Shown: positions 534-63,806, counted from the first letter of the stretch. The stretch: 64,000 nucleotides of DNA from Protoeuglena noctilucae (GCA_958009085.1 OY253689.1:1-64000), one strand, 5' to 3'. Numbers and translations are program-made. Notes: generated from the sequence alone by a model not told the origin.

Positions 534-3500
534 TCACACGCGGTGCGCCACCCCCTGCGTGGCCAGCTTGAGGGCGTCCAGCCGACGCTTGAGGTCCTCG
601 AGGGTCGTGCCCACGACTCCCCCGCTGGCACGGACGCCCTGAGGACGGGGCGGCGGCGGCGAGAGGTGTGGATGTCGCATCCTGCGCTCGTCATAGCAGC
701 CGATGCAGCAGTGACCCGGCTGAGTGCACTCGCCTGGTTCGAGGCCGCAACGGACGGCAAGGGAGCCTTGTCCACGCTCCCTGCCCCCCACGCCTCCCGG
801 GCCTCACTGGGCGGCCCCCGGCGGTGCGCTGCGTCGGGGGACCCCGCGGCCGAGTCACCGCGGGAGGGGGCGGCTGAGGGGGCCACCGAGGACTGCGGGG
901 AGGGCATTGGGAGGAGGTCACGAATGGACCCCGTGGCCGTGACTGCGAGTCTCACTGCCTCAGAGAGCCCTGGGGGTCGCCTGCCCATGCCCAACGCCCA
1001 TCACCCCCTCCCCCTCGCCTGCGTGGACGCCACAGGGTGCGACTGGAGGGCGGCGACGGCCTCGGCGGAGGGCAGCCCCACGCTGCGTCGGAGCTGGGCG
1101 ATGCGCTCCTGCACCGAGGGGGCCGAGGGGTCCAGGGAGGAGCGGGGCGGGGGGGCGTGGGTGGGGTGCAGGGCGTGGCTGTGGTCGGGGGCGGGGATCT
1201 TGGAGGGGGTGCGCTCGAGCTTCGCAGCGGGGTCGCGAGAGGCGGGGGCGGGGTCGCGGGGGCGCGCGGCGTCCGGGGAGGTGCAGTGGGCGGGGGCGGG
1301 GGGGTCGACCTCTGCAGGGGAAAGGCGGGGGCAGGGGCAACGTCGCCTGTGTTATCAACCCGACCGTTAGTGCGGCGCGGTCGACATGGCAGGGCCTGGC
1401 AAGTCCGGCACTCGCAGGCGTGCATATCGCATGCCGCGTCTCATCAGTCACGCACCGTCTCCCCCCCTCAGGCCGTGCCGCCTCTCTGCAGCCGCTGCGA
1501 GTCCCTTGGCGACGTAGTGCCTCAGCTCCCGCGAGCACTGCGCCAGGAACGGCTCCAGGTCGATGCCCGGGTGCCGCTGCGTGAGGTCGTAGAGGTCGGC
1601 CAGGCCGGCGTGGCTGGTGGCGCGGTCGGAGATCTTGCGGAAGGCCTGGGGGGGAGGGGGGTGCGTGGGGTGAGGGTGAGTGGAGGGTATGGGAATGGAG
1701 CAGTGGGGGCTTTATGGGAGCGATGGGTGCCGTGGATGGGGTGCGTGCGAGCGGGGGAGATGGGTGCGTGTGCACGCAAGGTGAGGCAGGGCTGCGTAGT
1801 GTCACGGCCCCGTCCATGGGATAGCAGGGTAAGCAGTGAGGGTGTCGCTGCTCGGCATGCACTGCATCGCCGTCCTCGCCTGGGAGAGTGCCTTCTGCAG
1901 TGCGGGGTCGGCGCGTCCGCTGCCCTCAGGGGCGTTGGGGTCCAGGGCCGCGAGGGGGAGGGACTCGCGGGGGCCGGCACTCTCACTGCGCAGCTGACGC
2001 TCCAGGGCTGCGAAGGGGGTATGGATGGGGTGGGTCAGGTGACCTCAGAATGCAGATGCAGGTCCAATGCGCGGGTGGATGCGTGTTGCTCTGCTCTGCC
2101 CCCCCTCCCCCCCCCCCCCCCCGCCCCTCACCCCCCGCTGCCTCCGCCGACTGCAGTGCGATCTCCACGTAGGTGTGGATGACGGGGACGGCGTCGGGGC
2201 ATGCGGGGTCCGGCCGTGCGACCCTGGCCACGTGGTCACGTATGGCGCGGCCCTTGATGTTGCAGAGGGTGTGGAGGAGGGTCTTGACGATGCGCAGGGA
2301 CTCGTCGGCGGAGTTGCCGCGCCTGCGAGGGGGGTGGGGTGAGCGGGCAAGCGGTGATGGGGGTGTGGGTGGGAGTAGGGGTGGCAGTGACGCTGGGCAC
2401 AGGGTCTCGTGGCAGGCAGCATGCGAACCGAATACAGAACAGTGCATAGCAATCACATCACCCCCCCCCCCCCTCGCCTGCGTATCTCCTCCACCCCCAG
2501 GGCGTGCAGGAAGGCATGGATGGCCGCCAGCACCGCGTCCAGGTCCAGGGACCCCACCACGCGGCCCATGGCCTTGGCCAGCTTCACCAGGCAGCGCACC
2601 GCGAGCTTCACCACCTCGGCGTCGCGGCCCTGGGGAGGGGGGTGAGGAGGGTCGGCGTGGGGGGAGCGAGGAGGGAAGGGGGGAGCAGTGCGCACAGAGC
2701 TGGGGGGTTTCTGAGCTAGAGTGGCTGGCAGCGTCGCTGTGCTTGTCATCAATACTGCCAAGCAGGATCGCTGCGTCTCTCGCCAAGACCGCCCACCCGC
2801 ATCCCCGCGTCCCTCACCGGGGGCGCGTCCGTGAGCACGGGCGGCTGCAGGAGCATCCCCACGAGGCAGCACACGACGGCGGTCTTGTCCCCGTTCTCCA
2901 GCGACCGCAGCACGAGGACGTTGAGGGCGCGGAGGAGGCCGGGGGCGTCGTCGCCCAGGGATGCCACGGCGGGGGAGGGGAGGAGGTTCAGGGACACGCC
3001 CAGCAGGTCGCGCAGGGTGGGCTCTGGGGGGAAGGGGGGGATGTGAAGAGGTGAGATGAGGAAGGGAAGACTGGGCTACTATGCAATGATAAGAGAAGTA
3101 GACGCATCTGCAACCACGTGCGAGTGTGCATGTCATCGCCCATCACCTTGGACGGCCTGTGCGGTGGCGGGGAACTGGAAGAGCTGCATGAGGGCGTTGA
3201 GGGTGTACTTGCACGCGCGCACGCACGAGGCCATCCCCGCCGCGTCCCCCCGGGCGTGGGCGGCCGTGGCACCCGCGAAGGCGTCGCGCATGGTGGCGGC
3301 GAGGGTGCGGGAGAGGCGGTCGGCGTCGGGGGCGAAGAGGGAGAGCATGGAGGACCTGGGGGAGGAGAGGTGGGGGTGGAGAGAGGTGGAGCGTGGTTGC
3401 AGCAGACGAGGACTGGCCACACGGAGCTGGGCAGAGCAGGGGGAGTGCGACGGCCATCAGTGCATGGCCATGACGAGCAGTCTGCCTCACCTGACTTCCG

Positions 3501-6500
3501 CATCTGCCCCCGCCGCCTCCATGAGCAGCCCGCAGAGGATCTTCATCCCCTCGATGGCCCTGGCCGTGTCCCCCGACTGCACCATGCCCATGCCCAGGGA
3601 CCAGGGGGTCGCCTTCAGCTGCGAGGAGAGAGGATGGGTGCGTGCAGGGATCACGTGTGACGAGTGCAGCGTGGCGCATACATGCTGGAAGTGGCATGCC
3701 AAGCCGTGCAGGGATGCAGTCACTTCAGCACAGCACAGCATGTCATCATCGCCCACCTGCATGCCCTTGTCCCCCACGACGGGCGGAGTGCGCGGCGCAA
3801 CCCTCTCCCCTGCTTGCGTCGCCGTCTGCCCCGCCTCCGCGCCCCACGCCATCCGCGGCGCTGCGGGGGGCGCCTGGGCCGGGGCGGCGAAGAGGGGCGC
3901 GGCAGGGCAGTCCGGCATGGCGCGCATCTCCGCGTCCCCGTCCCTGTCCGCATGCGATTGCACGTGCCCTTGCACGTGCATGTGTGACCCCACTGCACCC
4001 ATGCCCACTGCGTGGCCGTCTGTGCCCTCGTCTCCGTCGACGTCCATGGGCTCAGGGGCAGGCGCAGCGAGGCCAGGCAGCCGCGAGGGGGCGGGCTGCG
4101 TCTGCTTGCGGGGCCGGGCGTCGGCACGAGAGGGGGGCTGCGGGGGGAAAGGAGGGGGAAGAGGGACGTGGCGGAGTGCGACATGCATGTGATAGCAATG
4201 GCTCATCTCAGTTCACCCCTCTCTCCATGCATTAACCCCCCCCCCCCCCCCCCCCCCCTCCCTCTGTCACTCACCTCCTCCCTCACCACCTTGACGTGTT
4301 TGAATTTGTCCTCCAGCACCGATGCCTCCCTCTCCCCCATGGGGCCCAGCGCCTTCCACGCCCCCACGCCCAGGTGCCGGTACGCGGTCCCGCAGCATTG
4401 CACGGCGGCGTTGCGGACGCTGTTGTCGCGCTCCCCCACCGCGCGGGCCACCAGGGGCAACACCCGCGCCCGCGCCATGCAGGGCGGCACCCCCCCCTCG
4501 CGCTCCACCCAGGCTGCCAGCTCCTCCAGCCACGTGACCCGCGTGCGCTTGTTGCCCGTGGACTCGAGGCCCAGGCGGGAGATGTACTCGAGGACGCGGT
4601 CGGGGGGGTACACCTCGCACACTGGGGGGGGGTGGTGGGGGGTGGATGAGGTTGCACGTGCGATGGCGGGGCAGTGGGGTCGGTGCTATGCCCCAGAGAT
4701 GGCAGGGGTAGGGTTGATGATATGGCTTGCATGACAGACACCCGGGCATCTCCGCGTCCCACCCCCTCACCCTGCCTGGCGACGCGCACGTGTGCCTGCC
4801 GGACGCGGTCGAGGTTGTGCCCCGCGCGGTCGACCAGGGTGGGCAGCAGGGCGAGGGCCTCCTGGTCCGAGAGGGGGAGGCGGCGGTCGCGGAGGGCGGC
4901 GAGGATGGCAGAGAGCATGTCCAGCACCTTGAGCAGAGACTGGGGGGGAGCAAGGGGGGTGGATGGTGGTGACGGGCCATGCCAGGTGCAACATCACCCA
5001 TGAATCAAAGGTGATTGTGAGAGATCCATGCCATTGCAACAGCACCCACACGCCGTGCCCTCGCCTGTGTGTTGGGCTCGCAGAGTCGGCATGCGGCCCA
5101 GTAAAGGACCAGGTCCAGGGACCCCGCCACGCAGTCGAACTGAGACAAGGCAGCAGCTGCGATGCGGTCGGCGGCCGCGCAGTGCCTGGGGAAGTCGGGG
5201 CTGAGGAGGTCGGCGACGAGGGAGGGGGAGGCGAAGGGGGCCAGGGAGGGGGCCAGGGACTCCGAGGCGGCCTCGTCCGCGCGGGGGTCGGACCAGGCGG
5301 CGGGGACGCGCACCACGCGGAGGCGGCGGGCGCGGAGGGGCTTGTTGGGGTCGACAGCGACGAAGGCGGGCTCGGGGGCAGACGCGGTGGGTGCAGAGAG
5401 GGTGGCGGCCGCGCTGGCACGCACGCCCCCGGCAGCGGCGGCGGCCAGGGCGGCGGATGCGCGGGGGAGGGCGGTGGTGGAGGCGGAGACGGAGGCGCTG
5501 CGGGAGGGGGCGCCGGCCGCGCGGTCCCTGGGGGCCCCGGTGCGGGTGCGGGTGAGGGCGGGGGCGGTAGCGGCTGTGGGGCCGGGCAGTGCCACCCCCG
5601 CCTTGGCCAGCGCCGCAGTGAGGGCGTCGGCGGCTTCCCGGTTCGCTGGGGACCGCAGCCGCGCCATGGCCTGGCCGAGGGCGTCCGGCGTCACTGCTTG
5701 CGCCACCACGCGTGTCAGGGCCGCCCCCGCCTCCCGTGCCCCGGGTCCCTTGTCAGCAACAGCAGCGGCACAGCAGAGGAGGACGTCGGCGAGGGACGCA
5801 GAACACAGGGAGGCCGCGTGCTGGGGGCACACGAAGAGGGGGAGTGTAGTGTTAGTATGGAAACACCTGCTAGAGTCGAGCGCCATGTGCTGATGAGCAT
5901 TTGCCCATCCCCCCCCCTCGCTCACCTGGGGCAGTGCGGTGGCCAGGAACTCCGCGGCCGCCTGCTTGGCCTCGCCTCCCCCCCTCGTCTGCGCCAGGGC
6001 CGCCTTGAGGTCCCCCACCACCCAGTCCAGGCCGCATGCCTCGGCTGCAGCTGTGAGGAAGGCCGACGCTGCGGCGCGGTTGGGGGCGCGCTTGTCGGCG
6101 AGGATGGGGAGGGCGGCGTCGAGGAGGGAGCGGCCCTCGCGGGCGAGGGGGCGGCCCATGGAGCGGGCCAGCTGGGCGCAGACGTCCAGGGCCTGGGACA
6201 CCAGGTTGCGGTTCGAGTCTGCGGGGGGAAGTGGGGAGAATGAAGTTTAGCGATAACACAGATGCTAAGTTGGCGCACGACTGGCAAGTCGGAAGAGGGT
6301 ATGCTGGACTCGCTGGCCTGCCGCATCAATGACAGTGGCCCCCCCCGCATGTGCAACACCCCCCTCCTCTCTCACCCGTGATGCGTGCCTTGAGTGCCGG
6401 CACCAGCTCCCCCACGTCCGGCCCCACGCGGTGCCCCGTGGCGGCGAGCATCCCCGCCACGGCAGATAGCGCCTCGGCCCGGTCGCTCCACTTCACCGAC

Positions 6501-9500: not shown

Positions 9501-10183
9501 CCTGAGGGACGCGAGGGTGACGGTGCATGAGTGGTGACGAGACAGCACTGAGGCAAAGCGAGAGCGGAGCGGGGCAGCATGTCCGGTATTGGTGCGGCGC
9601 TCGTCTGCGGTGCCTCACCTGTGACGGCGTCCTTGGCGATGCGCGATGCCACGCCCTCGTCTTCGACTTCCAAGAGCGCCACGAGGGCCTCGAGGGCCCG
9701 GAGCTGCGCGGCAGCGTTGGCGTCGCCCACGCCCTGCAAGCGGGGCTCGCGCATCGATCGGCGAAGGAGCGCAGCAGCGGCTTATGTGCAACCGGTTCCA
9801 CCTCATTACCCACCTTGGTCGCCAGCAGCCGCGCGTACTCGTGGAAGGTCGAGTCAGCATTCCCTCCACACCCGCTGCGACAAGAGGGGTGCAGGGCACG
9901 TCCGGCAAGCGCGACGAGGCACGCGCGGGGCAGGGGAGGCGGCATGCGACGCGGGACAGCCCGCAGCGAGCGCAGGGCGCACCCCGCGTGCACGGCCTGG
10001 GATCCTCAAGACTGCCATCGCACACGATCGCCGTTCGCGCGTGTCTGCGCGCCCCACTCGCCTGCTGCACGCCGCCTGGATGTCCTCGTAGGCAGCCACG
10101 CGCACTTTCCAGCTCGCGCTGTCCACCCGCTCCTCCATGGGCAGCTTGCGGGACTCCTCCACCAGCCTCGCATCGTCCGACAT
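534..10183 (-). CDS. MOR1: Microtubule polymerase MOR1/XMAP215/ch-TOG (TOG/HEAT repeats), ~24 exons
   Basis: Spliced N-terminus MSDDARLVEESRKLPMEERVDSASWKVRVAAY...GVGDANAAAQLRALEAL. TOG-start motifs (KWSERRDA, SWRDRQ, KWSDRAEAL) and KARITDSNRNL are present. Plant-MOR1-like C-terminus AFRKISDRATSHAGLADLYDLTQRHPGIDL and GTTLEDLKRRLDALKL. Stop TGA at 534-536. Confidence 0.93.
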
Positions 10184-11000: not shown

Positions 11001-13328
11001 ATGGCGCTTGTTAGACCACAATTGCGGATTGGAGGCCCCAACCCGTGTGTGAGGTCCATCATCGCGCGGCCCTGCGGACGGCGCGGGCGCGTCTGGCACG
11101 CCGGCGAGGGTGGAGGGGACTCCGGCGCTGCAGATGCAGGCCGCGTGTTTCTCTTTGCGGGGGTGGGCTTCGCAGCCAGCAAGCTCGTCGGGCTCGCGCG
11201 GGAGGTGGCCATCGCATCCGCGCTCGGCGTCACGCCCCTCGCCGACGTCTACAGCCAGGCAAGGGGCGTGCATGCGTGGGTGCGCATGCTGTGGGGAGCG
11301 CGGGCGTCGACTGAGCAGTGGATGATGCTCCCATGCAGGCGACGGTCCTGCCCAGCGTGGCGGCGGCGCTCCTCGGGGGCGCCAATGGGCCCCTGCACAG
11401 CGCCGTCGCCGCAACCCTGCCGAGTCTTCCGCGACCTCTTTGGCGAGGGTACCTGCTGCGGGTGTCGCTCGTTGCCGCCGCCGTCGGCGCGGCTGCCGCC
11501 TTCGCCCTGGCGTGCGTTGCTGGTGCGTGCTTTGCCTGCGCGTGCTCTGACGGTGCTTGCTGCGGCGTCCAACCCTTCCAATACTTCCGTTGGACCCCGC
11601 AGCACCGGTGATGGGTGCCCTGGCCCCCACCCCCTCGGCCCTGGTGGGACGCAGCACCGCCGGTGCCCTGCTCGCCCTCCTGCTTGCGGCCACGCCCTTC
11701 TCCCTCGCATTCGGCGTCGCGTCGGGGTGCGTGGGACAGAGCATGTCAGTCGGCGCCTGTGCACTGAACTTCAGCACTCACCCTGCACGGATCGCCCACT
11801 GCAGGGCCCTGGCCGTGTTGTCCATGGATGGCGCGTCCTCGTCTGCCCTCGCTGCCCTGGCCCCCGCCATCGCCCCGTCGGTCCCCAATGGCATGGGCAT
11901 GGCGGGTCTGGCTCTGGGGCCGCTGCTGACTTCCACAGTCCCTCGTGACGTGGCCTGCACCTTTGGGCTGGCGGCAGGTGTGGCCCTGGGAACGGCGGCG
12001 CAGTGCGTGGCCGCAGCAGCGCTGTCCCGGCGCCTGACAGGCGGCGGGGACTGTGAGGGAGGCCGCTTTGGGTCGCGTGCCTTTGGGGAGGCGCTGAGGC
12101 GCACCGCGTCGCTAGTGGGCCCTGGGGTGGTGTCGCTGGGCACGCTGCAGCTGGCGACGCTGGCGGACGTCGTCATGGCCGGCAAATTCCCGGGCGCTCC
12201 CGCGGCGCTGGGCTACGCCAACCTGCTGGCCATGGCACCCATCGGGGTGCTGTCCAGGCAAGCTTGAGCTCAAGGGGTGGTGGCAATCTTGGGGTAATGT
12301 TCATTCTAACGTCTCAAGCTGGACCCTTTCTGACCGCAGTGCTCTGCTGGTCCCGGCCCTGCCCGCGCTCTCCCGGGCGCACGCCCGCGGCCCCGGCCCT
12401 TTCCGCGCCTGCCTGGCCTCGCACCTGGGGGCGTCTATCGCGCTCGGCGTCCCCCTCGCTTGCGTGGGGTCCGCCCTGGCACCCGCTGCCGTGCGCGTCC
12501 TCCTGCAGCGGGGCAGCTTCGGCCAGGAGGCCACGGCCCTGGTGACGTCGCTCCTGCAGACGTACCTGGTCGGGTGAGTGGGGATGCGATGCAGGCACTG
12601 CGTCGATGGCCCCGCGTGGCGTGACCATCCCACAGCTACCCGTGTTCGTCCTCTCCGCCCCCAGGGCCCCCGCCTACCTCGCCAGGGACGTCCTGGTGCG
12701 CGCCTGCTACGCGGCAGGGGCGGGGTGGGCACCGCTGGCCGTCAGCGCCCTGGCCGTCGCCGCCAACGTGCCTCTCAACGCTCTGCTTTCCGGCGCCAGC
12801 TACCTCGCCCCGTCCGCAGACCCTAGTGCCGCCCTTGGCCCCGCCGGCCTCGTCCTGGCCACCGTCGCAGTCCACGCCCTCTCGGCTGCAGCGCTCCTGC
12901 TCGCCCTTCAGCCCGGTTTTTGTTGTATGTCGGCCCCACGCATGCTGCGGCTACTGCCGTTTATCATCTCCCGCGCCGCCCTGGCTGTGGTGGCGGCCCC
13001 CGTGGCGGCCGTGGCGATGGGGGCTGCGGTTGGCCTCGGGCTGCCAGTGGTGGCGCATCACCCCGTCCCGCTGGTCCAAGGCTACCTGTGCCTGATACTC
13101 CGACTGGCGGCGGCCCTCGTGGGGGCGACCATTGCACCTGCGCCCATGAAGGGCCTGGGGGCGCTGGCCTTGGCCGGGGCGGTGGGGCTGGCCGCCAGCG
13201 CCGTCGCGCTGGCGCCCCTGCTGCGCGGTCGGGGGGGGGGGGGGGGGCTGGCTGCGGTGGGCGTGATTCGCTTGCACTGCGAGCCGCAGGGCGTGGGCCA
13301 CTGGCGTGTCGTTGTCAGCTTCAATTGA
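11001..13328 (+). CDS. murJ: MurJ/MviN lipid II flippase, cyanobacterial type, probable plastid transit peptide; ~6 exons (start may be 10917)
   Basis: Motifs SKLVGLAREVAIASALG..ADVYSQ|ATVLPSVAAALLGGANGPLHSA, LGYANLLAMAPIGVLS|SALLVPALPALSR, LQRGSF and YLARDVLVRACYA resemble cyanobacterial MurJ (LLGGINGPFHSA; RDVLVRVFYAL). GC-AG introns at 11259-11338 and 12258-12339. Confidence 0.85.
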
Positions 13329-50194: not shown

Positions 50195-53100
50195 ATGGCC
50201 GTGACGCTGAGCCTCCAGAGGGGCCTGGACCTCGTGAGGACTTCCAAGAATCCGGACACGGTGGAGGAGTGTTTCAAGATTCTCCGCGATGCCCTGAAGA
50301 ACCGCTACGATGCGGACAGGCCCGGCATCGACATCATCGTCAAGTGCGCCGAGGCCGCGCTGCACGTGAGTCGTGGCGTCGGGTCGGGGCCCGCGCGTGC
50401 GCCCGGGGACCCGGGTCTTCGGCGCATGAGACGGCGAGGACATCGAGCTTACGCTGCATCGTTTGATTGCGGAGGAATCGCAGTTAGACCTCGCGGCAAG
50501 CGGGACGCGGATGGCATGTCGCATCTTTGGCACACCGTCCCGAGGGCGAGCCGACTCCACGACGATATCGTCCCCGCTGTCTCATGCGCAGGCGGAGCGG
50601 ATAGACATAGCTCGGCAGGCCCTGACGCTCTACGACGCGGAGGCGGCCCTGCTTCTCGCCGCGGGCAGGGAGGGGGAGAAGCTCGAAATCGCCGACCAGT
50701 TCAGGGTCAGGTGACCTTTGCCGCGGCAGTTTGAGTGATGCACATATTCGTAGCGCTACGAGCGTGCGTCCCCAATGCTGCCACAGCGAGCTACATGGGT
50801 TTGCACGTCAGCTGCGCCCTTGAATGCACGCTCAGGCAGCCCCGCGCGTCCGCGATGCCATGCAAGCACCATCTCCTGCTCACTTCAGAGCGAAGTATGC
50901 CCGGGGCGTCGTGGAGGCCTTCGAGGCGAGGACCAGCAAGGGGTCCGAGTTGATCGAGAGCACGCTGCATGCCATCTCCATCATTTTGGACGGCATGGAG
51001 ATCGCCGAGAAGAACCCGAGGTGAATGTGGATCGCTAGTCTCGCGTGGACGTCCCAGCGGGTCGCCAGGAGTGCCACTAGAGTCACTGCCACTCCCCGTC
51101 CCACCCCGCCCGCAGGCACCGCTTCCTGGTGTACAACGGCTCGGTGCACTTCTGGCACGCGTCCTGGGTCCTGCAGCGCGCGGGGATGCGCAAGCACGTG
51201 GTGGAGCCCACGCAGCGCGTGGTGCGGTTCCTTCAGGCCGTGCCCGGGCTAGACCAGTGGCGGGCGCGTCTGCAAATCGCGCTGTCGCGGGGGCTGGCAG
51301 AGATCGGGCGGACGGACGAGGCGCTGAAGGGTCTCGCGGAGGCCAAGTCCCTGGCGCAGGCGGCGGGGGACATGGACCTGCAGAAGGAGGCGGTCACGGT
51401 GTCGACGCACCTGGCCTTCCTGAGCGGGAAGGGCAAGGTGGAGGGGAGCACGCCGTCCGAGCAGGCGCTGTCGATGGCGCAGGAGGTCCGCACGGTGGCC
51501 ACCCTGACGCGGGCCCAGGTGGAGGACAAGCTGCGGGCGGCGTACGACCTCGTGGACCCGGACCCCGACGCGGCGCCCACCTCGGTCGACCTGTCCGTCG
51601 TGGCCGTCATCGCCTGGACGTGCGCGTGCAAGGGGGTGCTGGACCTGGGGGAGGAGGCGGCCAAGAGGGCCCTGGTGTCCAAGGCGAGGGCGCGCAGGGC
51701 GCAGGACAGCAGCTACACAGCCACGGGGGCTGCTGTGGGCAGGGCGCTTGACGCAACGCCGTGTGCTTGTCCCTCAGGACCTCCGCGTGCGTGCCCGCGC
51801 CGAGCTGTCCATCTGCCAGCTCGAGCTGGACCGCGTCCAGGCCCAGCACGGGGACGACCTGGTCCCCGCCAACGTCCGGGCGCGCGAGTCCATCCTCAAC
51901 GGCGCCGAGCAGTGCTGCGCCCAGTTCCTGCGCCTCCTCGATCCCTCGGGGGTGCAGGACGCGGCCGTGCTCATCTGGAACGCGGCGCTTCCCCTGCTGC
52001 AGAAGAACCTCCGCGAGAAGCTCAAGCGCATCTTCTTTACGGCCGCCAACGCCCTCTCGGCCATCCAGTCGCCCATGACGAGGCTTCGGACGCAGTTCCA
52101 CCTCGAGATCGCCAAGGTGACTGAGACTGCGTGGCTGGGCCCGGGGAAGCTCTGCTACGGCTCGTAGCGTGACGGCAGCTCCGGCTCCTTCCCCGCGCAG
52201 CTCGACGTGGAGGAGGACTCGATGGTCAAGGCCGCCGACCAGGTGGCTGCGGCCCTGAGCCTCGACTACGCGGCGGCCACCGAGGAGCAGCGCCGGACCG
52301 ACCTGGAGCGGCCGCTCGACCGGTACCTGGAGCCCATGTACAAGGCCCTGCAGCTCAAGACGGCCATCTACGAGGAGCCAGACGTGAGCGAGGGGGGAGA
52401 CGCTGCAGCCGCTTGCGCAGTAAACCCCTGCTGTTGCTGATGGGACTCCCCCGGCTGCACTGCAGAACATCGAGGACCAAGTGATTGTGCTGGTGGAGCG
52501 CGCCAAGGATGTAAAGGGCCAGAGCGCGCGGCAGGAGACGCTGGAGCGCGCAATCAGCCTCTTTATGGACCTCCCGCCCATCAGCCCCCCGTACGCGCCA
52601 TCCGCGGACGGGCAGGTGTGTGCTGCGTGGCTGCCGGTTGTCGTGGGTCACGGCACTGTGGCAGGTGGCATAACCCTGTCTCTTCCGCTTCCAGGAGACC
52701 GTGGAGGAGCTTCAGGCGCAGCGGAGGCTGGCGCGGAACCGGAACGCGCTGTGGATGGAGATTATTCGCGTGGGGTGGGCGTCGCGGCTGCACGACGTGG
52801 TGCTTCACGCCGCACCGTTTGCCCTCGCTCCCCTGTACGATCCAAAGGTGGACTTCGAGATGGTGCGAATGCAGGTGAGAAATGGCGGGGCAACGCTGAG
52901 CTTGCCGCGACATCGGATCCCACACCAGTGGTCGACATGCACTCCTTGCTTCACGCTTGTCTCAGGCGGAGATTTGCTACATCGAGGCAGAGGCCGGCAT
53001 CCTGTCCCTACGTGTGAAAGGCAAGACTCTCACCGCCCCCGGGGTGGCTGGCTACCCAGACGACCGCAACGTCGGCGAGCACGGCTTTGACGAGACCGGG

Positions 53101-56100
53101 CTCCCTCTGCGCCAGGCTCCTGTGGACCCGTCCGACATCCAGTTGCGCGTCCCTTCTGCCATCGTGCAGGCAAGACCATGGCAGAAACCCTCGTTGCCGG
53201 TCACTGGGGCCGGTCTCGTATCCTCACCATCGTCCCACGCCCGGTACTTGCAGGGCATGCGGTTCGGTCTCAGTATCAATGAGCCCTGGCTGGTGACAAA
53301 CGGCGCGGTCCTGGCCTGGAACCACTACACGCACGTCTTCGTCGCTAAGGATCTGAAGGACATGCTTCCGTTTGTCGGGGACGTGTTCGACATCGTCATG
53401 CAGCTCGGTGAGGCACGCATGTAGCCCGGCCGTGCAGGCCGTGATGCTTACGTCGCTGCCATGAATTCGCCTTGCGAACTGTTCCATTCACATCGCAGAT
53501 CGAGTGGACCCGGAGCTGCTTTGCAACCTGGGCAACATCACCGCGTCGGCCCTCGAGCACAAGGCGCTGTATGACCACTACGGTGGGGACGACTCTTTGA
53601 GCTACAAAGCCCTGGTTCTGGCGGCCGTGCGGGACAAGGTGCGCCTGGAGGGCGACGAGGACATCACGCGGGCCGCCACGGCCTGCCGGGACGTGATGAT
53701 GAAGCTCGGGGACGCCGACCCGCTGCGGGCTTTCATGGAGACGCACGCACGCACCATAGCCCTCGCGGGACAGTCTGCGGGAGGCGCGGCATCGGGTGGG
53801 GCGGGCGGGGGAAAGGGGGATAAGAAGGGCGACAAAAAGGGGGCAGACAAGGACACTGGCATGCCAAACCTGTCGGAGATGAGCCTGAAGGAGCTGGCGG
53901 CTCTGGTGGTCGCGGGGATCAACAACGTCACGGAGCCGTCCCTGTCGGACGCGGACAAGGCCGCGGCGCTGGGCAACGCGGCGTCGGCCCTGGCGAAGAT
54001 GGAGGAGAAGAGCGGAGGGAAGCAGGACGTGGAGATGTGGACCAAGCTCGGGCAGGCTGCGCTTCTGGCGGGCATGCCCAGCGAGAGCGTGCAGTGCTGC
54101 AAGCACGCCATGAGCGTGCTGCCCTCACACGTCAAGGTCGATGAGATTGACATGCCCGAGGTGGGTTATGGCTGATGGGCCGCATGAGGGGCAAGGCCAT
54201 GGGGCCGCATGAGGGGCAAGGCCATGGGGGCAAGGCCTGGTTTACGCCGCAGCGTAATGCTTGCAATGTGCTTTCCATTGCAGGATGCCACGAGCGAGGG
54301 TGCCCAGATGGACGACCGGCTGTGGTACTGGCTCAGCATGTGTCAGAACATCATGAGCCAGGCCGTGCTCGGCCTGATCGAGCCGTCCCAGGACGCCATC
54401 ATGCAGGCACGCCTCAAGCGCATGTCTATCCGGCACGCCGTGGCCTCTGCCAAGTTCGGCAACTTCTGGTGCGTGGTCGCCTGCTCAAGCCTGCCTGCGA
54501 ACGTTGTAACCTTAACGCGGCAGAATATCATGGCAGTGGCAATGGAGTCGTGTCTTTCCCGTGCCTACGCAGCAAGCGGAAGGACCTCGTGAACGCTGCG
54601 GCCAGGCTGCTGTGGAACGCGTCCGTCGACTTCATGAACATGGTCATCACGCGGAAGACGCTTGTCTCGCCCTTTGGTGACGTTGCGTCTATCTTGGCCG
54701 AGCGTGGCATCGAGGACCCCGAGTTTGGGGTCCGGTACTTTGTGTCCCTGGCGGATCTCGTGGTCGAGGCGAGTGATAGGACGGCATTTGTTACGTGCGT
54801 GCTGCTTTTGGCTTGCAAGTAAGCAACACAGCCTTTCCTCCTCGTCGTGCCCAGGGCGGCCGTTACGCAGACGGGTTGCTGTACATGGAGGAGGCGCTGC
54901 GGTGCCTGCCTCAGAGCATGCACATGCCGCTTCTGGAATACAAGGTCCTGTTCGCGTCCAAGCTGGGCCGGGACGTCGAGGCCGAGATGTTGCGAGTGGC
55001 CAACTTCACCCCGACGGCCCAGGCAAGCGGGGGGCGCAGAGCAACTCTAAGTCAATGCTGGGCACCTGATGGACAAAGCATCCCTTACTGTTGTAGTGCG
55101 CACTGCTTTGCAGGCAAAGGTGTGGCTGGTGCTTGCCACCGAGTCCATCTCCGAGAAGGCACAGTTGGAGGGCCGTCAGAAAGCAGTGGATGTGCTCAAG
55201 TGAGGCATGCAATGTGGTTGTGCATGCCTCAGCATCCTGGTACACAGGCGTTGTCACCAACTCGCGGTGCACGTGCTTGCCCTGCAGGGGAGAGCCGTGG
55301 AGCCAGGCGGAGTACCTGGTAGAGTTGGCCGAGTTCGTCCTCCACACGGAGCGCAACCAGCAGCTGGCCCGGGATATGCTGCTGGAGGCGGCGTCCCTCT
55401 TGCTGCGGTCCGACCACACGAGGCTGCTGGGGGAGATCCACACGCTCGACCTTTTCTCGGTGTGTAGGCAGCGGGAGTCCGTGGCTGTGACCGGTGCTGG
55501 CTCTTACCACCCTGCGACCTGACTATTTGCTTGCAGTCCCACGACCCCCTGGAAGACCTGGCCAAGCCCGCCAGGACGGGCGTCCCTGTGAAGACGAAGC
55601 ACGCCTCGGCAACAACAGAGAGGGTTCTTCTCTGCAGCAACGGCTGGAAGTTCGTCACTCCCAAGGTGCGAGGCAGGACGGGTGTTGATGACCCGGATGA
55701 GCGGTTGTACCCTTCCCTCAAGTCCACCTCGTCTTGCTTTGCCCTCGCAGAACGTGCGCACCGCTGCACTTCGCGTGGAGCACCTCGAGGGGATGCTGCG
55801 CGCCATGACGCTCTTGGCGTCCATCCGGCGGCTGTACAGCCTGCGAGTAATCTGCGCCAGCGCTGCCGCCATCGCGGCCAAGATCATCGTCAAGATGGTG
55901 TCGGACCAGGTTAACGCCACCCACTGGCGCATCCCGACGCTGGAGGAGCAGGACGCGGAGGAGGAGCGGCGGGCAATTGCAGAGGGGCGCCCCACGCTGA
56001 CCAAGAGCAACACCTTCCGCCGACAGCGCCAGGAGGTCATCCCAGCTGTTGGCCCCAACGGCGAGGAGCCCCTTCTGCAGTGGTTCTACAACCCGCTGGA

Positions 56101-59100
56101 ATGGCACAAGTGGCAGTGCCCGGAGGAGGCGGTTCCGATGCTCAAGGACGAGACGCGATCCAAGTACCCCCGGATGGCCAGTGTGGCGCTGAAGCAGCCC
56201 GAGCAGACGGTGCACTACCTCAAGAACCTCATTGGTGAGGGGCCGCTTGGGCTGCAAGAGGTGTTGCTTGATCAAGCGTTGCAACCTTTGACAACACTAA
56301 CGAATCACATACCAATCTCCTTGCAGAGCAACTTGACGACCTGGGGCTCCCCACCATCGCCCTTCCCTGCACGGTCCTGCTCCACATGGCAGCGACGCAG
56401 GGTCTCCGTGGCCAGAACGCCGCCAATGCGGCCTTCCTGTACCAGACGCGCCTCTTTGACCGGATGGGCATGGGGAAGGAGGCAGAGAAGTGCTTGGACA
56501 AGGCCGGCGATTTGAGCAAGGCAGAGGTTGAGGAGCAGGAGTGCGAGAACGACCTCGCTCAGATGGAGATGTCGGATGCGCTGGCACGGGCGCAGAAGAG
56601 CAGCAAGCTCGCGGGGGACCTCGGCTTCGGCCGCGTCTCGCCGACCCTCGAGAAGCAGAAGAAGGAGGCTGACAAGCAGAAGACGCTGGCCAAGCAGCTC
56701 AGCCGGCAGGACTCGGGGGTGTTCCTGGACAAGGGCGTGGCGACGATAAACATGGAGGAGCTGCGGCGGAAGCTGCAGCAGGCCGCTTCCGTGTACGAGA
56801 TGCGTCCCATGACCATCCACGACATCTGGATTCTGCGGGTTTGGTTCCTTGTCGAGAGGGCCCAGTATGGCCCCGCACGGTGAGCGATGCGTCACAGCGG
56901 AATGCCTCGCCATTTTGCCAAGTTGGCGCCAGCAGCCAGAGCCCTAAACATCAACCTTTTCTCTTCTGCGACTCAGGGAGATCCTCATCGAGGCACACAA
57001 GCATGCCGAGGCTTTGGAGGACAACGCTGCTTTGGGCCTCACTTGTGCTTGGCAGGCGCGCATGGAAGTGCTTGCCAACAATCGGGAGCTGGCCATTCAG
57101 TACGCCCGCCAAGCCATGGAGCACGGCGGGGACCTCCGCATGTGGCGTCAGCTGCTCGTCACGGCGGCGCAGGCGCTGACTCTGCGCAGCCGTGAGCAGC
57201 GTGGGGAGAGCGCCCTGGGACAGGACTGCATTGACTTCATCGACAAGTGCGTCACCGTCTTCTCGCACCTGCGCCAGGAGCGCGCGGAGCTCGAGTGGGA
57301 GGTCGGGTGCATCTTGGCTGACCTGATGAAGGCCAAGGCGCAGGTGAGCTCCATTGATGTCTGCCACGCTCAATGATGCTTTGTCATTCCTCTCCGGCGC
57401 TCATGGCCATCTGAAGCTCGCCTGCAGGTCATGTGGGAGCGCATCATTGCCGGCCGCGAAGGCATGAAGCCCCTCGACTGCTCCATGCACTTCAACGCGG
57501 GCATGCAGGCGCTGCAGACGGCCGTCCACATCTTCCGGCCCATGGGCCTGTCCCCGATGCTCGCGCAGTGCCTCACAGAGTTTGCACAGTTCGTCGTCAG
57601 CGGCGCGCGTGTCCCCGGCCGAAAGGTCAACGAGGACGGCAGGCCTCGGCTGCGGCAGGCGCAGGCGTCGTTGCGGGAGGCCGAGAAGTACGCGGGCATC
57701 CTTGAGAACTGGATCAAGGAGACGGTGGGATGGCGGCCGTCAGACCACGAGGAAGACTTGGAGGAGGGCGACGGCAGGCGAGTGGAGAGTGTTGACGGCG
57801 TTTATACTGGTGGAACGTCACCTCTCACGTGTGCCTTGTGCCTATTGCTCGCAGCGAGGAGGAACCGGCGACTGAGGGAGCAAAGGAGGGGGCGTCGAAG
57901 AAGTCAAAGGCAGAGCTGGAAGCCGAGGCTGAGGCACGAGCAGCTGCGCTTGCAGAGAGGGAGCAGGAGCAGGCGTCATACGCGCTTGCAGCCTACCCTG
58001 TCACGCGTGTCCTGGCCGAGTGCCGGTCCTTGCTTGCCATGACCGAGTACGAGATTGGCAACATCTCCAAGCTGTATGCCGACAAGGACAAGGCAAGGGC
58101 ACGACCGCAAGCTTGCGTTGCAGTGGTATGCAGACCTCTTACCCCCCACACCCGCCTTCTCCGCAGCGTCGGGCACGCCCGCGGTTCCCTCAAAACCCTC
58201 GCGCCCAGCAGGAGAGCTTGGAGGCGGACGCTGTGGCGGACTGGCTCGACGCCACTGCCGGACACGATTGGGATGCAGGGCTCAAGAACTTCCAGGCAAG
58301 ACTGCATGCACTTCTGCTTCACGGCTGCCTGCCACCGCTGGCACACCACGCAGCATGAGCATAAATCTCTGGCTCGTTCCCATTTGCAGTCTGCGGTTCA
58401 GTGGGCGGACCAGGCATTTTCAGCCACCATGTGCCATGTCCCCGCGGCAGTCGCGCGGGCCAAGTACGCCAAGGGAGCTACGCTGCTCGCCCTCCATGTG
58501 CGGGAGCAGGAGCAGATCCGTGCGCAGGAGCAGGAGGCCAGTGCCGAGTCTAGCCGTGCTGCCGTGGATGCGGAGGCTTCACGGGCTGGTCCTGCCCCTG
58601 CGGAAGCCAAGGCAGAGGCCGGAGCAAAACCTCAGCAGGCGGCTGGATCGGGCGCAGCGGCACCGAAAGGGCCACTCAAGGCGGGTTCGGTTCGTGACAA
58701 GGGCAAGGGTGCACCGCCGCCAGAACCCCCAGTCGAGGAAGGGCCTCCGCCGGAACCGACACTCGAGGACCAGGGGATGCGGCTCTTGCAAGAAGCGTTG
58801 GACCTGGCGGTGGACTCGATGGAGTATTGGACGGCAATGAGGTGAGTTGTCGGGCCGGGCCTTTCGATGCTCAATGATCCCCGATCTCCATTGGCTGATG
58901 TGATGACCACGCCTGCGCCTGCGCCTTGCAGGGTGTGTGAGGCGCTGGCAAACCACCGCAACGGGGCGGGGCAGAGCCGCGGCGCCGTGGAGGCAGTGCT
59001 GATGGCCCAGGCAATCAAGGCGTCAGAGGAGTTGGTCTCGGTGTACCGGGACGCATCAGCTCTGCAGGCGCTGGAGAGGCTCAAGACGCGACAACGGACC

Positions 59101-60826
59101 GCCCTGAAGGAGGTGCGTTGGTGGAGGGGAAGGCAGTTAAGAGGGGCCCTCCTTCTTGTGTCCGGAAATCCTCATTTTCGCCCCCCCTTTTCCTGCTTCA
59201 GGCTGTCGTCGCCCTGTCAGACTCGCGCCATTACAACGCGGTGGACCAGGACCTGAAGACCGTGTCGCTCATGTCGGACCTGTTGAACCCCAAGTGCCCC
59301 ATGGACGCCGCGCTCAACATGGTCCCCACGACGACGGACATCCTTTGCTTGTACTTGGGGCAGGACGACGCGACCATGTACGTGGCAGTCCGCATCACCG
59401 AGACCCCGCAGGCGAGCTGCTTTCCGAGCATTTGTTGACGGGTCTGTGGGTGTCAGATTGCCAATACGCATGTCGACTCCCCCTCACCGATGATCCTCGC
59501 AGGCGTCTACGACGGATGTCAACGCCGACAATGCCCCGCGTATCGCGTGGCACCTGCGCACCGTGCGCGTCGACGTGGCGGCCATCAAAGACCTGGTCGT
59601 GGGGTACAACGCCTTCAAACGTGCTGCCGACATGATCTTTGTCACGGCCAGGTGATACCCAGGCCGGGGGGCTTTATTAAAAGTCCCTCACGTCTTCTTT
59701 CCTCGTACTCAGCCTCTCTACCATCTGTGCGACTGCAGGAACCTCAAGCGCGTCGATGCCGGTGACCCCGTGCTGGTGAGCCTCAACCAGCGATGGGAGG
59801 ACGTCCGTGCGCAGTTCACGGCCCAGCTGGACCCCATCCTGGGCGTCGTGGCGGACGTGGCCGACTGGCGCAGCCGGAGCCTCCTCCTCCTCCCCGACAT
59901 ACTCCTGAGCCGCCTGCCGCTCGAGAGCCTCGGGGTGTTCGCCCAGGCCGACAGCCTGGGGCGGGACTTCTCGCTGGCGCTCCTGCACCACCGCCTGAGC
60001 CACGTCAAGGAGCGTCCCCGGGAGGAGAAGCTCTCGGCCACGGACAAGGGCGGCGAGAAGAAGGAGGGCGGGGAGATGAAGGGGGGGAAGGCCGCGGCGC
60101 CCGAGGAGCCCGGCGCGAGCTTCCAGGTGGCCAGCATGTCGTACCTGGTGGACCTGCGCGCCGAGGACGACCCCTCGGCGCTGCCGGGCCGCCGCACGGG
60201 CAAGCTGGCCGAGGAGTTCAAGGGGCTGCTGAAGTCCGTAGGCGCCGGCTGGCGCGGCGTGGTCGGCGACGGCGACAAGGTGGCGGGGGAGGACGAGTGC
60301 ATCGCGCTGTTCGAGTCCTCCCGGGCGATGATCTACATGGGGATGGGGCGGTTCGGCGCCTTCGTGTCGCCCAAGGCCGTGGCCGCCGCCGACCTCCGCG
60401 GGTGCCGCCTCTCGCTGATCCTGGACGGCATCATGAACGAGGAGCTCGACCGGCGTCAGTCGTCTGTGGACCTGCGCAAGGCGGCCTGGGAGCTCTCCAG
60501 CGAGGGCGCCTTCGAGATGGCATGCATCTTGTCCCTGCGTGGCGTCACGACGGTCGTCGTCAACCTCGCCGCCAGCCACCCGGACGCCAACATGCACGTT
60601 GCCAAGGTGGGTGTGGCAGGCGTGGGCATGTGGTGGCGGGGTGAGGAGCGGTCCATACTCAGCAGCTACCCTGCTCCCCTCGCAGTGCCTCGAGAGCCTG
60701 AAACAGGCCAAGGTGCCCGACGTCGGCCGCGCCATCCGAAGTGCCTTGAAGACGCTGCCCATCGAGTCCGACTACTCCCGCTCCAACACCATCATCTACG
60801 GCTGCCCCTTCCTTGCGCCGAAGTAG
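50195..60826 (+). CDS. CFAP46: Cilia- and flagella-associated protein 46 (FAP46/TTC40, central-pair C1d), ~29 exons
   Basis: Very large TPR-like protein with HRFLVYNGSVHFW, EPWLVTNGAVLAWNHY and C-terminal LLPDILLSRLPLESL...RDFSLALLHHRL...NTIIYGCP. Confidence 0.82.
54177..54238 (+). repeat. 25-bp tandem duplication in a CFAP46 intron
   Basis: gggccgcatgaggggcaaggccatg occurs twice, followed by a partial third copy. Confidence 0.85.
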
Positions 60827-60851
60827 AGCGACCTCTCGCCGCGGATTGACG

Positions 60852-60856
60852 TGTAA
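60852..60856 (+). promoter_or_regulatory. Putative chlorophyte polyadenylation signal TGTAA downstream of CFAP46
   Basis: TGTAA lies 26 bp after the CFAP46 stop. UGUAA is the known chlorophyte signal, but this is a single occurrence. Confidence 0.35.
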
Positions 60857-61068
60857 CGACGCCTTCACACATAGGCACACCCTCCACGGACGAATGACCT
60901 TTGAACGACGCAGAAAACCTGCACCCTGGCACGGTTCGCAACGCCAGTCATCAGCTTGCCGCACTTTTGGGCCCCCAAGAGCCACGCGTGTCAAACGTGG
61001 GAAGTGTATCCAGGTGGTGCGACTCTCAATCGCCGGGTCCGCGCCCCCGTCGATTCGTACCAGCGAGG

Positions 61069-63806
61069 ATGAACGCTTTGGAGGACTTGCTGAAGCGAGC
61101 GAATGAGAATGCGTCGGACCAACAGGTGCACAGAATGTTCATGTCGCGATACATGCATCGCTGAGCCCCCATCGCGATCGGGCACGAACGGGAGATGGGA
61201 TGGGCACATGGTGCGCGCAGGGCCAGGCCCAGTTCCTCCTGACGGCCCCGGAAGCCGAGCGAATGGTGGAGGGGATTGCGAGGTTCGAACCCGACGGCGT
61301 GGGCACGGTCAAGTGGCTTACCCAGCACGACTGGATCGAGAAGCTAAATTTGCAGGCGCATCAGAACGCCCGCCTCCACCAGGTGCGCGAGCCAGCGGAT
61401 GACTTGCGCTGCTGCATAGCGTCGCTATGGACGCATGTGGGATCGCGCATCGCTCGGACCTCGCCCTCGCGCGCGTCTGTATTTACGGCGCCACGCCAAA
61501 GAGCACCTGCATGGGTCTGCGCAGGACGAGTTTGTGATGGAGTTCCTGGCCTCGTACGACAAAATCAATGTGCTCATCCACGAGCTCCTCTCCACCGAGG
61601 TCTGGCGGGAGATGCTGTTTCCACGCCAGAGGGAGCACCTGGTGTGTGCCCGCATGGTCGTGGCCCCTGCCCACCCGCGCCCCTCGCCCTTCGGCGCCCC
61701 CGCATCCGTCGCTCCCGCTCCTGCCCTGATCCGCAGGCCAAGGAGGTCGACAACATCACCACGTACCAGCTGCTGTACCACGAGGGGGCCGTGGCGAACC
61801 TGCTGGAGATCTGCCTCTTCCACCCGTCCGCGCTGGAGGCGATAGACGAGGACCACATGATTGAGCTCGTTGACTGGTGCCAGTGGAAGGCGAGGATGCG
61901 CAGGGAGCATTGTTGGCCACCTTCGGTGCATGCCGGGGCAGCGACAACGGTCCGCGCCTGCGCTCCCCCTGCAGTTCCTGTACCTCAACACGCGAGCCCA
62001 CAAGGACAAGGAGTTTGAGAAACCGGACGCCAAGCGCCTCCTGTCCATGACTGAGCTGGACGAGCTCGATGAGAAGGACCGGGAGACGCGGTTTGGGGCG
62101 GCCATGTGCGCCCTCAGCATCTTCAGGTGTGACCTGACTCAGGGGAGCGCTGCAGAGGCCGCAGTTGATTCGTAAGCTTGGACTTCGACTACTCTCCGCC
62201 CTTCCCTCGGTGCTTGGCAGGTACGTGACGGACAACGCGGCACGCCTGTCCCTGGGCACCGTGTCGCGCATCCAGTCAACCCACGACATGCCCTTGGCGC
62301 TGCTGGCGATGCTGGACAACCCGCCGTGGGAGCGGCGCCGGGACGGGGTCCTCGAGGCGAGGGCGGCGCAGGCACTGGCAGTGCTGCGGAGGGTACAGGG
62401 ATGACGCGCCGTGTGCCAAACCTCGACCCTCGGTGCCCCGCAGCGCCTGGTGGAGAACAAGTGGACGGAGGTGGCGGGCGCGGAGCGCGTGCGTCTCTGC
62501 CAGAACGCCGCGCAGGTGTGGCTGGCCCTCAACAACCTGGTGGTGGACGACCGCTTCCGTCAGCGGTACCAGTGGGACGGGTTCCGCAAGGAGTCGCTGC
62601 AGAAGGTGAGGGGCAGTCGCACTGGGTGCCACTCTTGCAATAGCAGGCAATGTTGCCAATACCTGTCTGCCAGGCCCTCCTTGCTCCTATACCCCGCAGG
62701 CCAAGCGCCACATGAACGAGGTGCTGTTCGACCAGCTCCCGCCGCTCAAGGACCTGCAGCGGGTGGTGGAGGAAATCAACCTGGGGGCGCAGGCGGCCGC
62801 GGGTGCTGAGCCGGCCGGGCGTGGTCTGCTGATCCTGGAGCAGGTCCCGCACATCCGGGAGGGGATGCTGGCGTGCAAGGACTGGGACGCGGCAGCGCAG
62901 GTGGGGAGGGGTGGCAGCAGTGGCGGTTGTCACCATTTACTGACTCGCAAAGGCAGTTGCGACCCTCGTCATGTCGATGCCTAGTACACGACCAACTGCG
63001 TTCATCGGTCCGTGTGCCGCAGTCGATGGTGAACCGGGTTTTCCGTGCGGGGAAGAAGGAGCGTGACCAGTACACGCGGCAGCGCGTGGATGACATGGTG
63101 AAGGCATTTGAGATGATGATGGAGATGGAGGGGACGGGGGAGGGGGTGGCGCCGGGGAGGGGGGAGGAGGACGTCGTGTACTTCGAGAGCAAGCGCAAGG
63201 CAGCCGGGGGTGGGTGGGTCGTGCACGACCACTTCAGGCGAGAGATAGAAGGATCAAACGCGTCAGTCAAGGCCATTCAGAGGTGTGACGTCCAATGCTG
63301 AGTTGTGACCACTGAACACCGCCTCCCCCGCAGCTGCCCCGTGGACCGCGGGCGTGACCCGGAGGCGGTGGAGTTGACGGGGGAGGACGGGACGGTGGTG
63401 CGGGGGACGCGGATGCGGCTGGCACCCCCGGCCAGCAGCGGCGTGGTGCCCATGCCCAGCGCGGGCAAGGTGGTGGTGCGCCACCGGGGCATGCAATGCG
63501 AGGCGCTAATCGACCTCCCCGCGCCCCACACCAAGGACGCCATCGCGACGGGTGAGGGTCGCCGATGCACAGGGGGGCGCGCTTCATCACGAATCTCGCC
63601 ATGACTGTGACTCACCGCCACTCCCTCAACCCCTTGCAGTGCCTGGGGTGGTGTGGCTGACGATCGGCATCCTGGCCACGGACGGCTTTGCCCTCCAGCT
63701 GAAGCTCAAGCGCGACGCCGGCGCGGCGGTCAGGGACAAGGAGGCGGGGGTGTACTGCGCGTACGTGCCCGTGGGGGGTGCCGTGACGGTGCGGGACACG
63801 AGCTGA
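61069..63806 (+). CDS. ZMYND10: ZMYND10/BLU (DNAAF7) homolog lacking the C-terminal MYND finger; 11 exons
   Basis: KWLTQHDWIEKLNLQAH, DEFVMEFL.SYDKINVLIHELL.TEVWR, LYHEGAVANLLE..LFH, ELVDWC, QVWLALNNL and MNEVLFDQLPPLKDLQR. Confidence 0.9.

Follow-up and report, generated by a model that had tools for sequence, protein, structure and literature searches.

GC-AG introns account for about a quarter of the introns in a 64-kb window of the Protoeuglena noctilucae genome

How large a share of the introns of a genome can begin with GC in place of GT, and what allows them to do so? The question is raised by a 64-kb stretch of Protoeuglena noctilucae DNA (OY253689.1:1-64000; hereafter the window, meaning the whole stretch analysed, to which all counts refer), in which an initial annotation had placed GC at the 5' splice site, or donor, of 34 hand-mapped introns. 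It had been proposed that either the splicing machinery is altered or G+C pressure converts GT to GC wherever the flanking letters AG/..RAG compensate (a slash marks the splice junction throughout). Here, the proportion claimed, about a quarter, is confirmed: 34-36 of the ~141 curated introns (24-26%) genuinely begin with GC, a tally that excludes nine further GC donors called by a gene model with weak signals. With a probability of about 0.8, these are ordinary U2-type GC-AG introns that G+C pressure has brought to compositional equilibrium wherever the flanks compensate. The G+C content of the window is 67.9%, and ranges from 63 to 75% across 4-kb bins.

Evidence for the GC donors

All 34 listed donor positions are the G of a GC dinucleotide. 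Exonic AG precedes all but one of them (33/34, the exception being 19628), and 33 of the 34 read GCGAG or GCAAG, donor 40653 (GCGAC) being the exception, both as previously described. The conserved reading frames do require these introns, since 33 of the 34 segments are unreadable, either containing an in-frame stop or having a length not divisible by 3; the sole segment that can be read in frame is that of donor 53170.

RNA evidence came from four marine metatranscriptome runs (X1-X4) that match parts of the stretch and whose contigs were aligned to positions 44001-64000. Fifteen of the 41 joints are listed, all but two of these 15 lying within 44001-50000, and once alignment ambiguity had been resolved, 13 of the 15 were GT-AG and two were GC-AG. 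The latter are the claimed donors 44971 and 49238, the only two claimed donors among the joints listed, and at neither is a GT-AG placement possible within the ambiguity; for the intron at 44885-44971, GC..AG is the only splice-type placement in an ambiguity of 4 nucleotides. A piece of an X2 contig also begins at 58387, as expected for the acceptor of the intron at 58296-58389 with a shared CAG.

Further support was provided by homologous proteins and domain profiles. Junctions were examined in alignments of the MPBQ/MSBQ-type methyltransferase (19 of 120 homologues listed) and of CFAP46, for which 14 of 69 phmmer matches were aligned, including a full-length homologue of 2884 residues that is 53% identical (P0125); the ZMYND10 exon search returned a single homologue (P0123). 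Profile continuity is exact across donor 12258 (Pfam MurJ 249 to 253, TIGR01695 276 to 279), and at donor 10061 the Pfam TOG profile is continuous over exons 1-3 to within one position (3-30, then 55-83). At donor 23577, the Zip profile ends at 216 with the exon, a 32-residue exon and the split codon account for 217-248, and the last exon starts from 249. Between the introns 26497-26638 and 26780-26918, a 47-residue exon fills a gap of 40-42 positions in the RecG profiles NF008168 and TIGR00643, whereas continuity is loose at donor 39050, where the Dymeclin profile reaches 584 in one exon and stands at 601 at the first residue of the next. No junctions could be placed from the weak matches of the EST1, BRCT and dymeclin N-terminal exons, and the exon-by-exon profile search gave no NCBIfam match for the RecG-like N-terminal exons.

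Taken together, independent support is firm for 14 of the 34 claimed donors (RNA for two, homologue alignment for nine, profile continuity for three), moderate for two and weak for two; two more fall where the homologue alignment is gapped, 14 are known from the gene model, and none is contradicted. As regards the features that define a U2-type GC-AG intron, namely a GC start, an AG end and absence from the mRNA, RNA documents them for two introns and homologues or profiles for 12. While all 34 donors of the initial map stood, one of its acceptors did not. Translation of the 45 nucleotides at 58167-58211 gives RRARPRFPQNPRAQQ, in agreement with CFAP46 homologues; as the homologous stretch RRARP.FP.. 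is coded from 58167, donor 58093 is right and its acceptor is 58166, not 58211, the placement implied by the initial annotation and by the gene model alike.

The gene model is a two-strand Viterbi gene finder, self-trained on the window, that combines codon log-odds, donor and acceptor matrices and a length prior, with one matrix common to GT and GC donors. When both donors were allowed, it predicted 17-18 genes with 153-157 introns, or ~8 introns per gene, reproduced 14 of the 15 introns proven by RNA, and retrieved all 34 claimed GC donors in every run. Its errors, as judged against RNA or homologues, comprised false introns at 45455-45556 and 58537-58767, a skipped exon at 46095-46223, a donor at 44487 where the RNA has 44466, and the wrong acceptor at 58211. 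Model introns 45455-45556, 46095-46223, 58537-58767 and 44381-44487 were dropped before the statistics on intron anatomy were compiled, and 58093-58211, with its correct donor and wrong acceptor, was kept. Two other versions of the model were discarded: one with flat splice scores, which was too noisy and recovered 3 of the 15 RNA introns, and one that treated the strands separately and fused genes across them.

Could the GC donors be an artefact of hand-mapping in GC-rich DNA, the true donors being nearby GTs? In the window, the dinucleotide GC occurs at roughly twice the frequency of GT, the flat-score version called many spurious GC donors, and a GT-only model replaced each of the 34 donors by an in-frame GT located between 87 nucleotides upstream and 69 nucleotides downstream. 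Yet the RNA contigs use GC at both claimed donors among the 15 joints listed, and the GT alternatives add or remove residues in conserved ungapped columns at nine junctions and break profile continuity at three others, so that this explanation is already contradicted at 14 sites. Model scores also discriminate between GC and a dinucleotide of the same background frequency. The score was 3435 with GT only, 3696 with GT and GC, 3484 with GT and GG, and 3478 with GT and GA, corresponding to gains of 261 nats for GC, 49 for GG and 43 for GA. With all four GN donors competing, the model chose 105 GT, 45 GC, 6 GG and no GA, and still found the 34 claimed donors. Because GG is as frequent in the background as GC and was chosen six times, noise should account for about six of the 45 GC calls, in keeping with the 11 GC donors that the model calls beyond those of the initial annotation, of which two have full consensus flanks and nine have weak signals. 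We consider it next to inconceivable that an artefact accounts for the GC donors as a whole. The GT-only run also bears out the earlier warning that gene finders limited to GT would mis-annotate most genes here: 12 of the 17 modelled genes were affected, and finders restricted to GT, or strongly favouring it, would add or delete up to 29 residues in frame.

Flanking letters and composition at the +2 position

GC and GT donors differ sharply in their flanks. The full consensus AG/G.RAG is present at 32 of 34 GC donors and at 18 of 104 GT donors (Fisher p = 3e-16), in line with the previous remark that GT donors tolerate varied flanks. The difference is seen for A at -2 (33/34 vs 58/104, p = 2e-6), A at +4 (34/34 vs 73/104, p = 7e-5) and A at +3 (9/34 vs 5/104, p = 0.001), and the mean number of matches to the U1-complementary consensus over seven flank positions is 5.0 for GC and 3.9 for GT donors (p = 1e-8). 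At full-consensus donors the second intron letter (+2) is C in 34 cases and T in 18 (65% C), a proportion not distinguishable from the C/(C+T) of 0.608 in intron interiors (binomial p = 0.57 for 34/52), whereas at all other donors the C:T ratio is 2:86.

In other respects, the two classes are alike. Median lengths are 94 nucleotides for GC and 95 for GT introns (not significant, 0.55), the acceptor has C at -3 in 34/34 and 102/104 cases, and the pyrimidine shares are 0.76 and 0.78. U12-type signals, defined as an RTATCCTT donor and a TCCTTAAC branch site, were absent, with no such donor among ~150 introns and no such branch box in the 34 GC introns. The classes differ in phase: 27 of 34 GC introns are in phase 0, compared with 46 of 104 GT introns (p = 4e-4), and 26 of these 27 follow a CAG, AAG or GAG codon. 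No GC intron is in phase 1 (0/34), because the exonic A required at -2 is rarely a third codon letter (4.5% of codons).

These features can be accommodated by a simple mechanism. C at +2 would cost one base pair with U1, and later with U6, and would be tolerated only if all other pairing positions are present. In a full-consensus context, +2 would then be nearly neutral, and GC-biased mutation or conversion would carry it to ~65% C; wherever a flank letter is missing, T would remain fixed. The A needed at exon position -2 would confine GC donors to phase 0 after CAG, AAG or GAG, or to phase 2, with phase 1 excluded. The proposal that G+C pressure converts GT to GC where AG/..RAG compensates agrees with the flanks, with the C share at +2 and with a GT donor in a relative (P0124, see below), and the initial interpretation, which left the choice between this and altered machinery, was thus partly supported. 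Consistent with this, the abundance of GC-AG introns follows G+C in algae, the U1 5' ends being canonical (PMC3033335; bioRxiv 10.1101/2024.10.30.620910; PMC4028052).

The other half of the initial interpretation is that 5' splice-site recognition has changed, so that a U1 variant with G opposite +2, or an altered U1C, U5, U6 or Prp8, recognises GC like GT. For this speak a GC-AG share of 24-26%, far above the mean of 1.3% over 61 species (PMC3033335), and the frequency of C at consensus sites, which matches composition and shows no sign of a cost. Authors who described Aureococcus and Micromonas pusilla called the cause there an enigma and suggested base modification or U1 small nuclear ribonucleoprotein (snRNP) proteins (PMC3033335). 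However, GC still needs maximal flanks in the window, C at +2 behaving as the weaker letter, and the U1 5' end is canonical in both Aureococcus and M. pusilla, which have similar GC-AG fractions (PMC3033335). An Rfam search found no RNA gene in the window, small nuclear RNAs included. The canonical U1 sequence is AUACUUACCUG, and the canonical U6 box is ACAGAGA. An altered spliceosome is not required by the data, and we regard it as unlikely. Equally doubtful is the narrower version in which recognition has changed in the lineage (by a variant or modification of U1, or through U1C, U6 or Prp8) such that C at +2 is free once the other positions pair. If true, it would explain why C is at a neutral share here while other algae of similar G+C, such as Micromonas RCC299, stay near 3%, and this intron-rich genome, with ~8 introns per gene, would be a good system in which to study the enigma of GC-AG abundance.

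In animals and plants, genes with alternative splicing have an excess of GC donors. An abstract on the subject reports the same (PMC2490688), and introns are often retained in Emiliania, a species with mostly GC donors (PMC4028052), both of which would suit the idea that the GC donors were selected as weak sites for regulated splicing, by intron retention or alternative donors, and did not arise by drift. Against it, the share of C at consensus donors is that expected under neutrality, and the GC introns are evenly distributed among genes (chi-square p = 0.7, 15 genes). The only unspliced contigs, those of X1, span GT and GC introns alike, contigs being no measure of splicing efficiency. Selection of this kind seems very unlikely to account for the pattern.

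Another source of GC donors would be a recently spread family of introner-like elements carrying them. Micromonas pusilla, with 22% GC-AG introns, is known for its introner elements, and RCC299 has few of either, a coupling that favours such an origin. However, an all-vs-all BLASTN comparison of ~150 introns revealed no family in the window: it yielded three short low-complexity pairs, none linking two claimed GC introns. GC and GT introns share one length distribution, and several GC introns occupy ancient conserved coding positions. There is hardly any chance that introner-like copies explain them.

Relatives offered one view of turnover at +2. A protein that is 80% identical over the query exon (P0124, an unspliced open reading frame (ORF) call) reads ..RALSSK/VRGGGG at donor 51684. 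Its Val (GTN) stands where the window encodes Ala (GCG), which implies a GT donor at this position in the relative; P0124 thus provides one example of a GT/GC switch at an intron position that has itself stayed the same. Metagenome scans yielded no relative with the CFAP46 exon and, with the methyltransferase exon, 80 loci but no close ones; the best eukaryotic methyltransferase locus (L008, 52% G+C) has other intron positions and GT donors. The best green-algal protein matches came from Tetraselmis, at 80% in a single exon, and from Pedinophyceae sp. YPF-701, at 72% along 308 residues. In public protein collections, the search found only unspliced ORF calls at 57829-58842, of 268 (P0001) and 338 residues (P0122), which translate through two GC introns.

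Several observations weigh against compensation combined with G+C pressure, or against the GC share on which it builds. G+C alone is no predictor, as Micromonas RCC299 has 2.7% GC-AG introns at 64% G+C (PMC3033335). The flank contrast is partly circular, in that GC donors with strong flanks were easier to find in the hand-mapping and, to a lesser degree, are favoured by the Viterbi model (a handicap of ~1.6 nats for C at +2); the flanks of nine of the 11 unlisted model calls are weaker. The window contains 51 AGGCRAG sites, 34 of them donors, and exonic AGGCRAG is not clearly avoided (6 seen vs 10 +/- 3 expected), while exonic AGGTRAG is (0 seen vs 4.5 expected). GC accounts for 13% of the RNA joints listed (2/15), which is still compatible with 25% (P = 0.24). 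For 14 of the 34 donors the evidence is the gene model, at two others the homologue alignments are gapped, an in-frame GT can be found for every claimed donor, and the share was measured in 64 kb. Finally, one X1 contig is unspliced through the intron at 51684-51777. Run X1 is also unspliced through an intron that X2-X4 show spliced, and over GT and GC introns alike; X1 therefore carries pre-mRNA or DNA, and provides no argument against splicing.

The six AGGCRAG motifs within modelled exons lie on the sense strand and are unused by the model; they may be cryptic sites or missed introns.

GC-AG introns and their genes

The claimed introns are collected in Table 1, with two likely additions.

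Table 1. GC-AG introns of the window, by gene (lower case, exon; upper case, intron; "if retained" describes the effect of reading through the intron)
Gene	Intron	Strand	Donor	Evidence and remarks
XMAP215/MOR1-like	639..733	-	cag/GCGAGTG	gene model; frameshift if retained
MOR1-like	893..1018	-	cag/GCGAGGG	gene model; in-frame stop if retained
MOR1-like	1646..1879	-	cag/GCGAGGA	gene model; 2 in-frame stops if retained
MOR1-like	2323..2477	-	cag/GCGAGGG	gene model; stop and frameshift if retained
MOR1-like	4940..5064	-	cag/GCGAGGG	gene model; stop and frameshift if retained
MOR1-like, first TOG domain	9875..10061	-	cag/GCGAGTG	gene model and near-exact profile continuity (firm)
MurJ-like	11259..11338	+	cag/GCAAGGG	gene model; frameshift if retained
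MurJ-like	12258..12339	+	cag/GCAAGCT	gene model and exact profile continuity (firm)
BRCT gene	17082..17159	-	cag/GCGAGAC	likely addition, not in initial annotation; gene model; full consensus flanks, good acceptor
BRCT gene	19547..19628	-	acg/GCGAGCA	gene model and weak BRCT profile continuity; only site without A at -2
ZIP transporter	23577..23659	+	aag/GCGAGGG	gene model and near-exact profile continuity (firm)
RecG-like	24486..24566	-	cag/GCGAGCC	likely addition, not in initial annotation; gene model; full consensus flanks, good acceptor
RecG-like	26497..26638	-	cag/GCGAGAG	gene model and moderate profile support
RecG-like	26780..26918	-	cag/GCGAGGG	gene model and moderate profile support
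RecG-like	27306..27473	-	gag/GCAAGGG	gene model; 2 in-frame stops if retained
RecG-like	27604..27743	-	cag/GCGAGGG	gene model
RecG-like	28034..28215	-	aag/GCGAGGG	gene model
EST1/SMG7-like	31981..32066	+	cag/GCGAGCG	gene model; EST1 profile matches of flanking exons too weak to place junction
EST1/SMG7-like	32250..32332	+	aag/GCGAGGA	gene model
Dymeclin	38924..39050	-	cag/GCGAGGG	gene model and weak (loose) Dymeclin profile continuity
Dymeclin	40572..40653	-	aag/GCGACAC	gene model; only site without G at +5
MPBQ/MSBQ-type methyltransferase	42844..42965	+	aag/GCGAGCG	GYLKK/DFIQAKYDF, ungapped conserved columns
MPBQ/MSBQ-type methyltransferase	43621..43714	+	aag/GCAAGTC	FFISK/EKFG, ungapped conserved columns
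Gene of unknown family	44885..44971	-	cag/GCGAGTG	spliced in RNA contigs X2, X4
GNAT acetyltransferase	49153..49238	-	aag/GCAAGTG	spliced in RNA contigs X2, X3, X4
CFAP46	51684..51777	+	aag/GCGAGGG	RALVSK/DLRVRARAEL, ungapped vs P0125 and others
CFAP46	53170..53253	+	cag/GCAAGAC	PSAIVQ/GMRFGLS, ungapped, conserved
CFAP46	54769..54854	+	gag/GCGAGTG	LADLVVE/GGRYA, ungapped vs homologues
CFAP46	55023..55113	+	cag/GCAAGCG	FTPTAQ/AKVWLVLATES, ungapped, conserved
CFAP46	57778..57854	+	cag/GCGAGTG	gene model; homologue alignment gapped at junction
CFAP46	58093..58166	+	aag/GCAAGGG	corrected acceptor; homologues continue ..DK/RRARP.FP..
CFAP46	58296..58389	+	cag/GCAAGAC	GLKNFQ/SAVQWAD, ungapped, conserved
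CFAP46	59412..59502	+	cag/GCGAGCT	gene model; homologue alignment gapped in region
ZMYND10-like	61890..61974	+	aag/GCGAGGA	gene model
ZMYND10-like	62357..62443	+	gag/GCGAGGG	BLASTP vs P0123 spans GVLE/RLVENKW, no gap at junction
ZMYND10-like	63238..63333	+	cag/GCGAGAG	gene model

The GC letters of donor 51684 are also present in the unspliced X1 contig, which is an independent sample.

Several genes of the window deserve mention in their own right. At 10917-13328 (+), this green-algal nuclear genome has a gene for a lipid II flippase of the MurJ type (Pfam MurJ, TIGR01695), which may hint at a retained peptidoglycan pathway. Downstream, an exon at 14940-15695 (+) codes for a highly repetitive charged coiled-coil with many units of 13 residues (letters not shown) followed by L or Q; around this exon, the gene model (13291-14700) is of low quality, and the majority of spurious calls of GC and GG donors fall there. 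The RecG-like model (24354-30821, -) carries an N-terminal DnaQ/RNase_T-type 3'-5' exonuclease domain in exons 29516-29755 and 29220-29381, and represents either a fusion protein or two adjacent genes merged by the model.

An X1 contig ends at 44285 and continues in a run of A, marking the site at which the transcript of the methyltransferase gene (plus strand, stop codon at 44139) is polyadenylated. As this site lies at the stop codon of a convergent minus-strand gene (44283), the 3' ends of the two transcripts must overlap. Ciliary genes are clustered in the second half of the window, with a leucine-rich repeat (LRR) gene at 47123-49004 (+), which we take to be DNAAF1-like (Pfam gave only LRR matches), and the CFAP46 and ZMYND10-like genes within 50195-63806 (+). 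The presence of these three closely spaced ciliary genes indicates that the alga is flagellate or has a flagellate stage.

Comparison with other GC-AG-rich genomes

The initial annotation overstated the rarity of such a GC-AG fraction, the same having been published for a green alga. In the survey of Iwata and Gotoh (2011; PMC3033335), which tied GC-AG shares to G+C, these amounted to 39.6% in Aureococcus, 22.2% in Micromonas pusilla CCMP1545, 7.7% in a Chlorella and 2.7% in RCC299. The window resembles M. pusilla CCMP1545 most directly: both are from marine green algae of high G+C (65.9% in M. pusilla) with nearly the same share of GC-AG introns (22.2% vs 24-26% here), and in both, GT and GC introns are similar in length (PMC3033335). 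It differs in being from another organism, in being far more intron-rich (~8 introns per gene), and in that an introner-like family was not found. Flank compensation and the equilibrium at +2 were measured here and are not met in the available part of the M. pusilla account (PMC3033335).

Lower values, ~14-17% for Aureococcus anophagefferens and 14% for Pelagomonas calceolata, are given in a pelagophyte preprint (bioRxiv 10.1101/2024.10.30.620910). There, as here, an excess of GC-AG introns is observed, which was ascribed to high genomic G+C, and the U1 5' end of Aureococcus is canonical (PMC3033335); unlike the intron-rich green alga studied here, however, these are stramenopiles with 0.2-0.9 introns per gene. 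In Emiliania huxleyi, GC is found at 56-65% of junctions and GT-biased gene models are wrong (PMC4028052). This species shares with the window a GC-rich genome (65% in Emiliania), an acceptor that stays AG and the tendency of GT-biased finders to mislead, but GC is the majority donor in Emiliania, whereas in the window GT is the majority donor and GC is confined to fully consensus donors. With the U2-type GC-AG introns of animals and plants (~1%; PMC3167603), the introns of the window have in common that a strong consensus elsewhere offsets C at +2, although their frequency is about 20 times higher. Literature searches covering Chlorophyta, pedinophytes and Chlamydomonas brought up no report of GC-AG abundance for the lineage nearest the window, and the word 'splice' does not occur in a pedinophyte genome preprint.

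GC-AG expansion in GC-rich algae is marked by a G+C content of at least ~65% and a share an order of magnitude above ~1%, and both are found in the window. Its introns are a further instance of a published phenomenon, and not a new kind of splicing. What they add is a known effect put in clear quantitative terms: C at +2 acts as a neutral letter where the donor is fully consensus, and as a forbidden one at all other donors. Across GC-rich algae, we propose the rule that GC-AG abundance is the product of the share of full-consensus donors and compositional pressure. The main use of this genome lies in correct annotation and in providing an intron-rich test case for the compensation rule.

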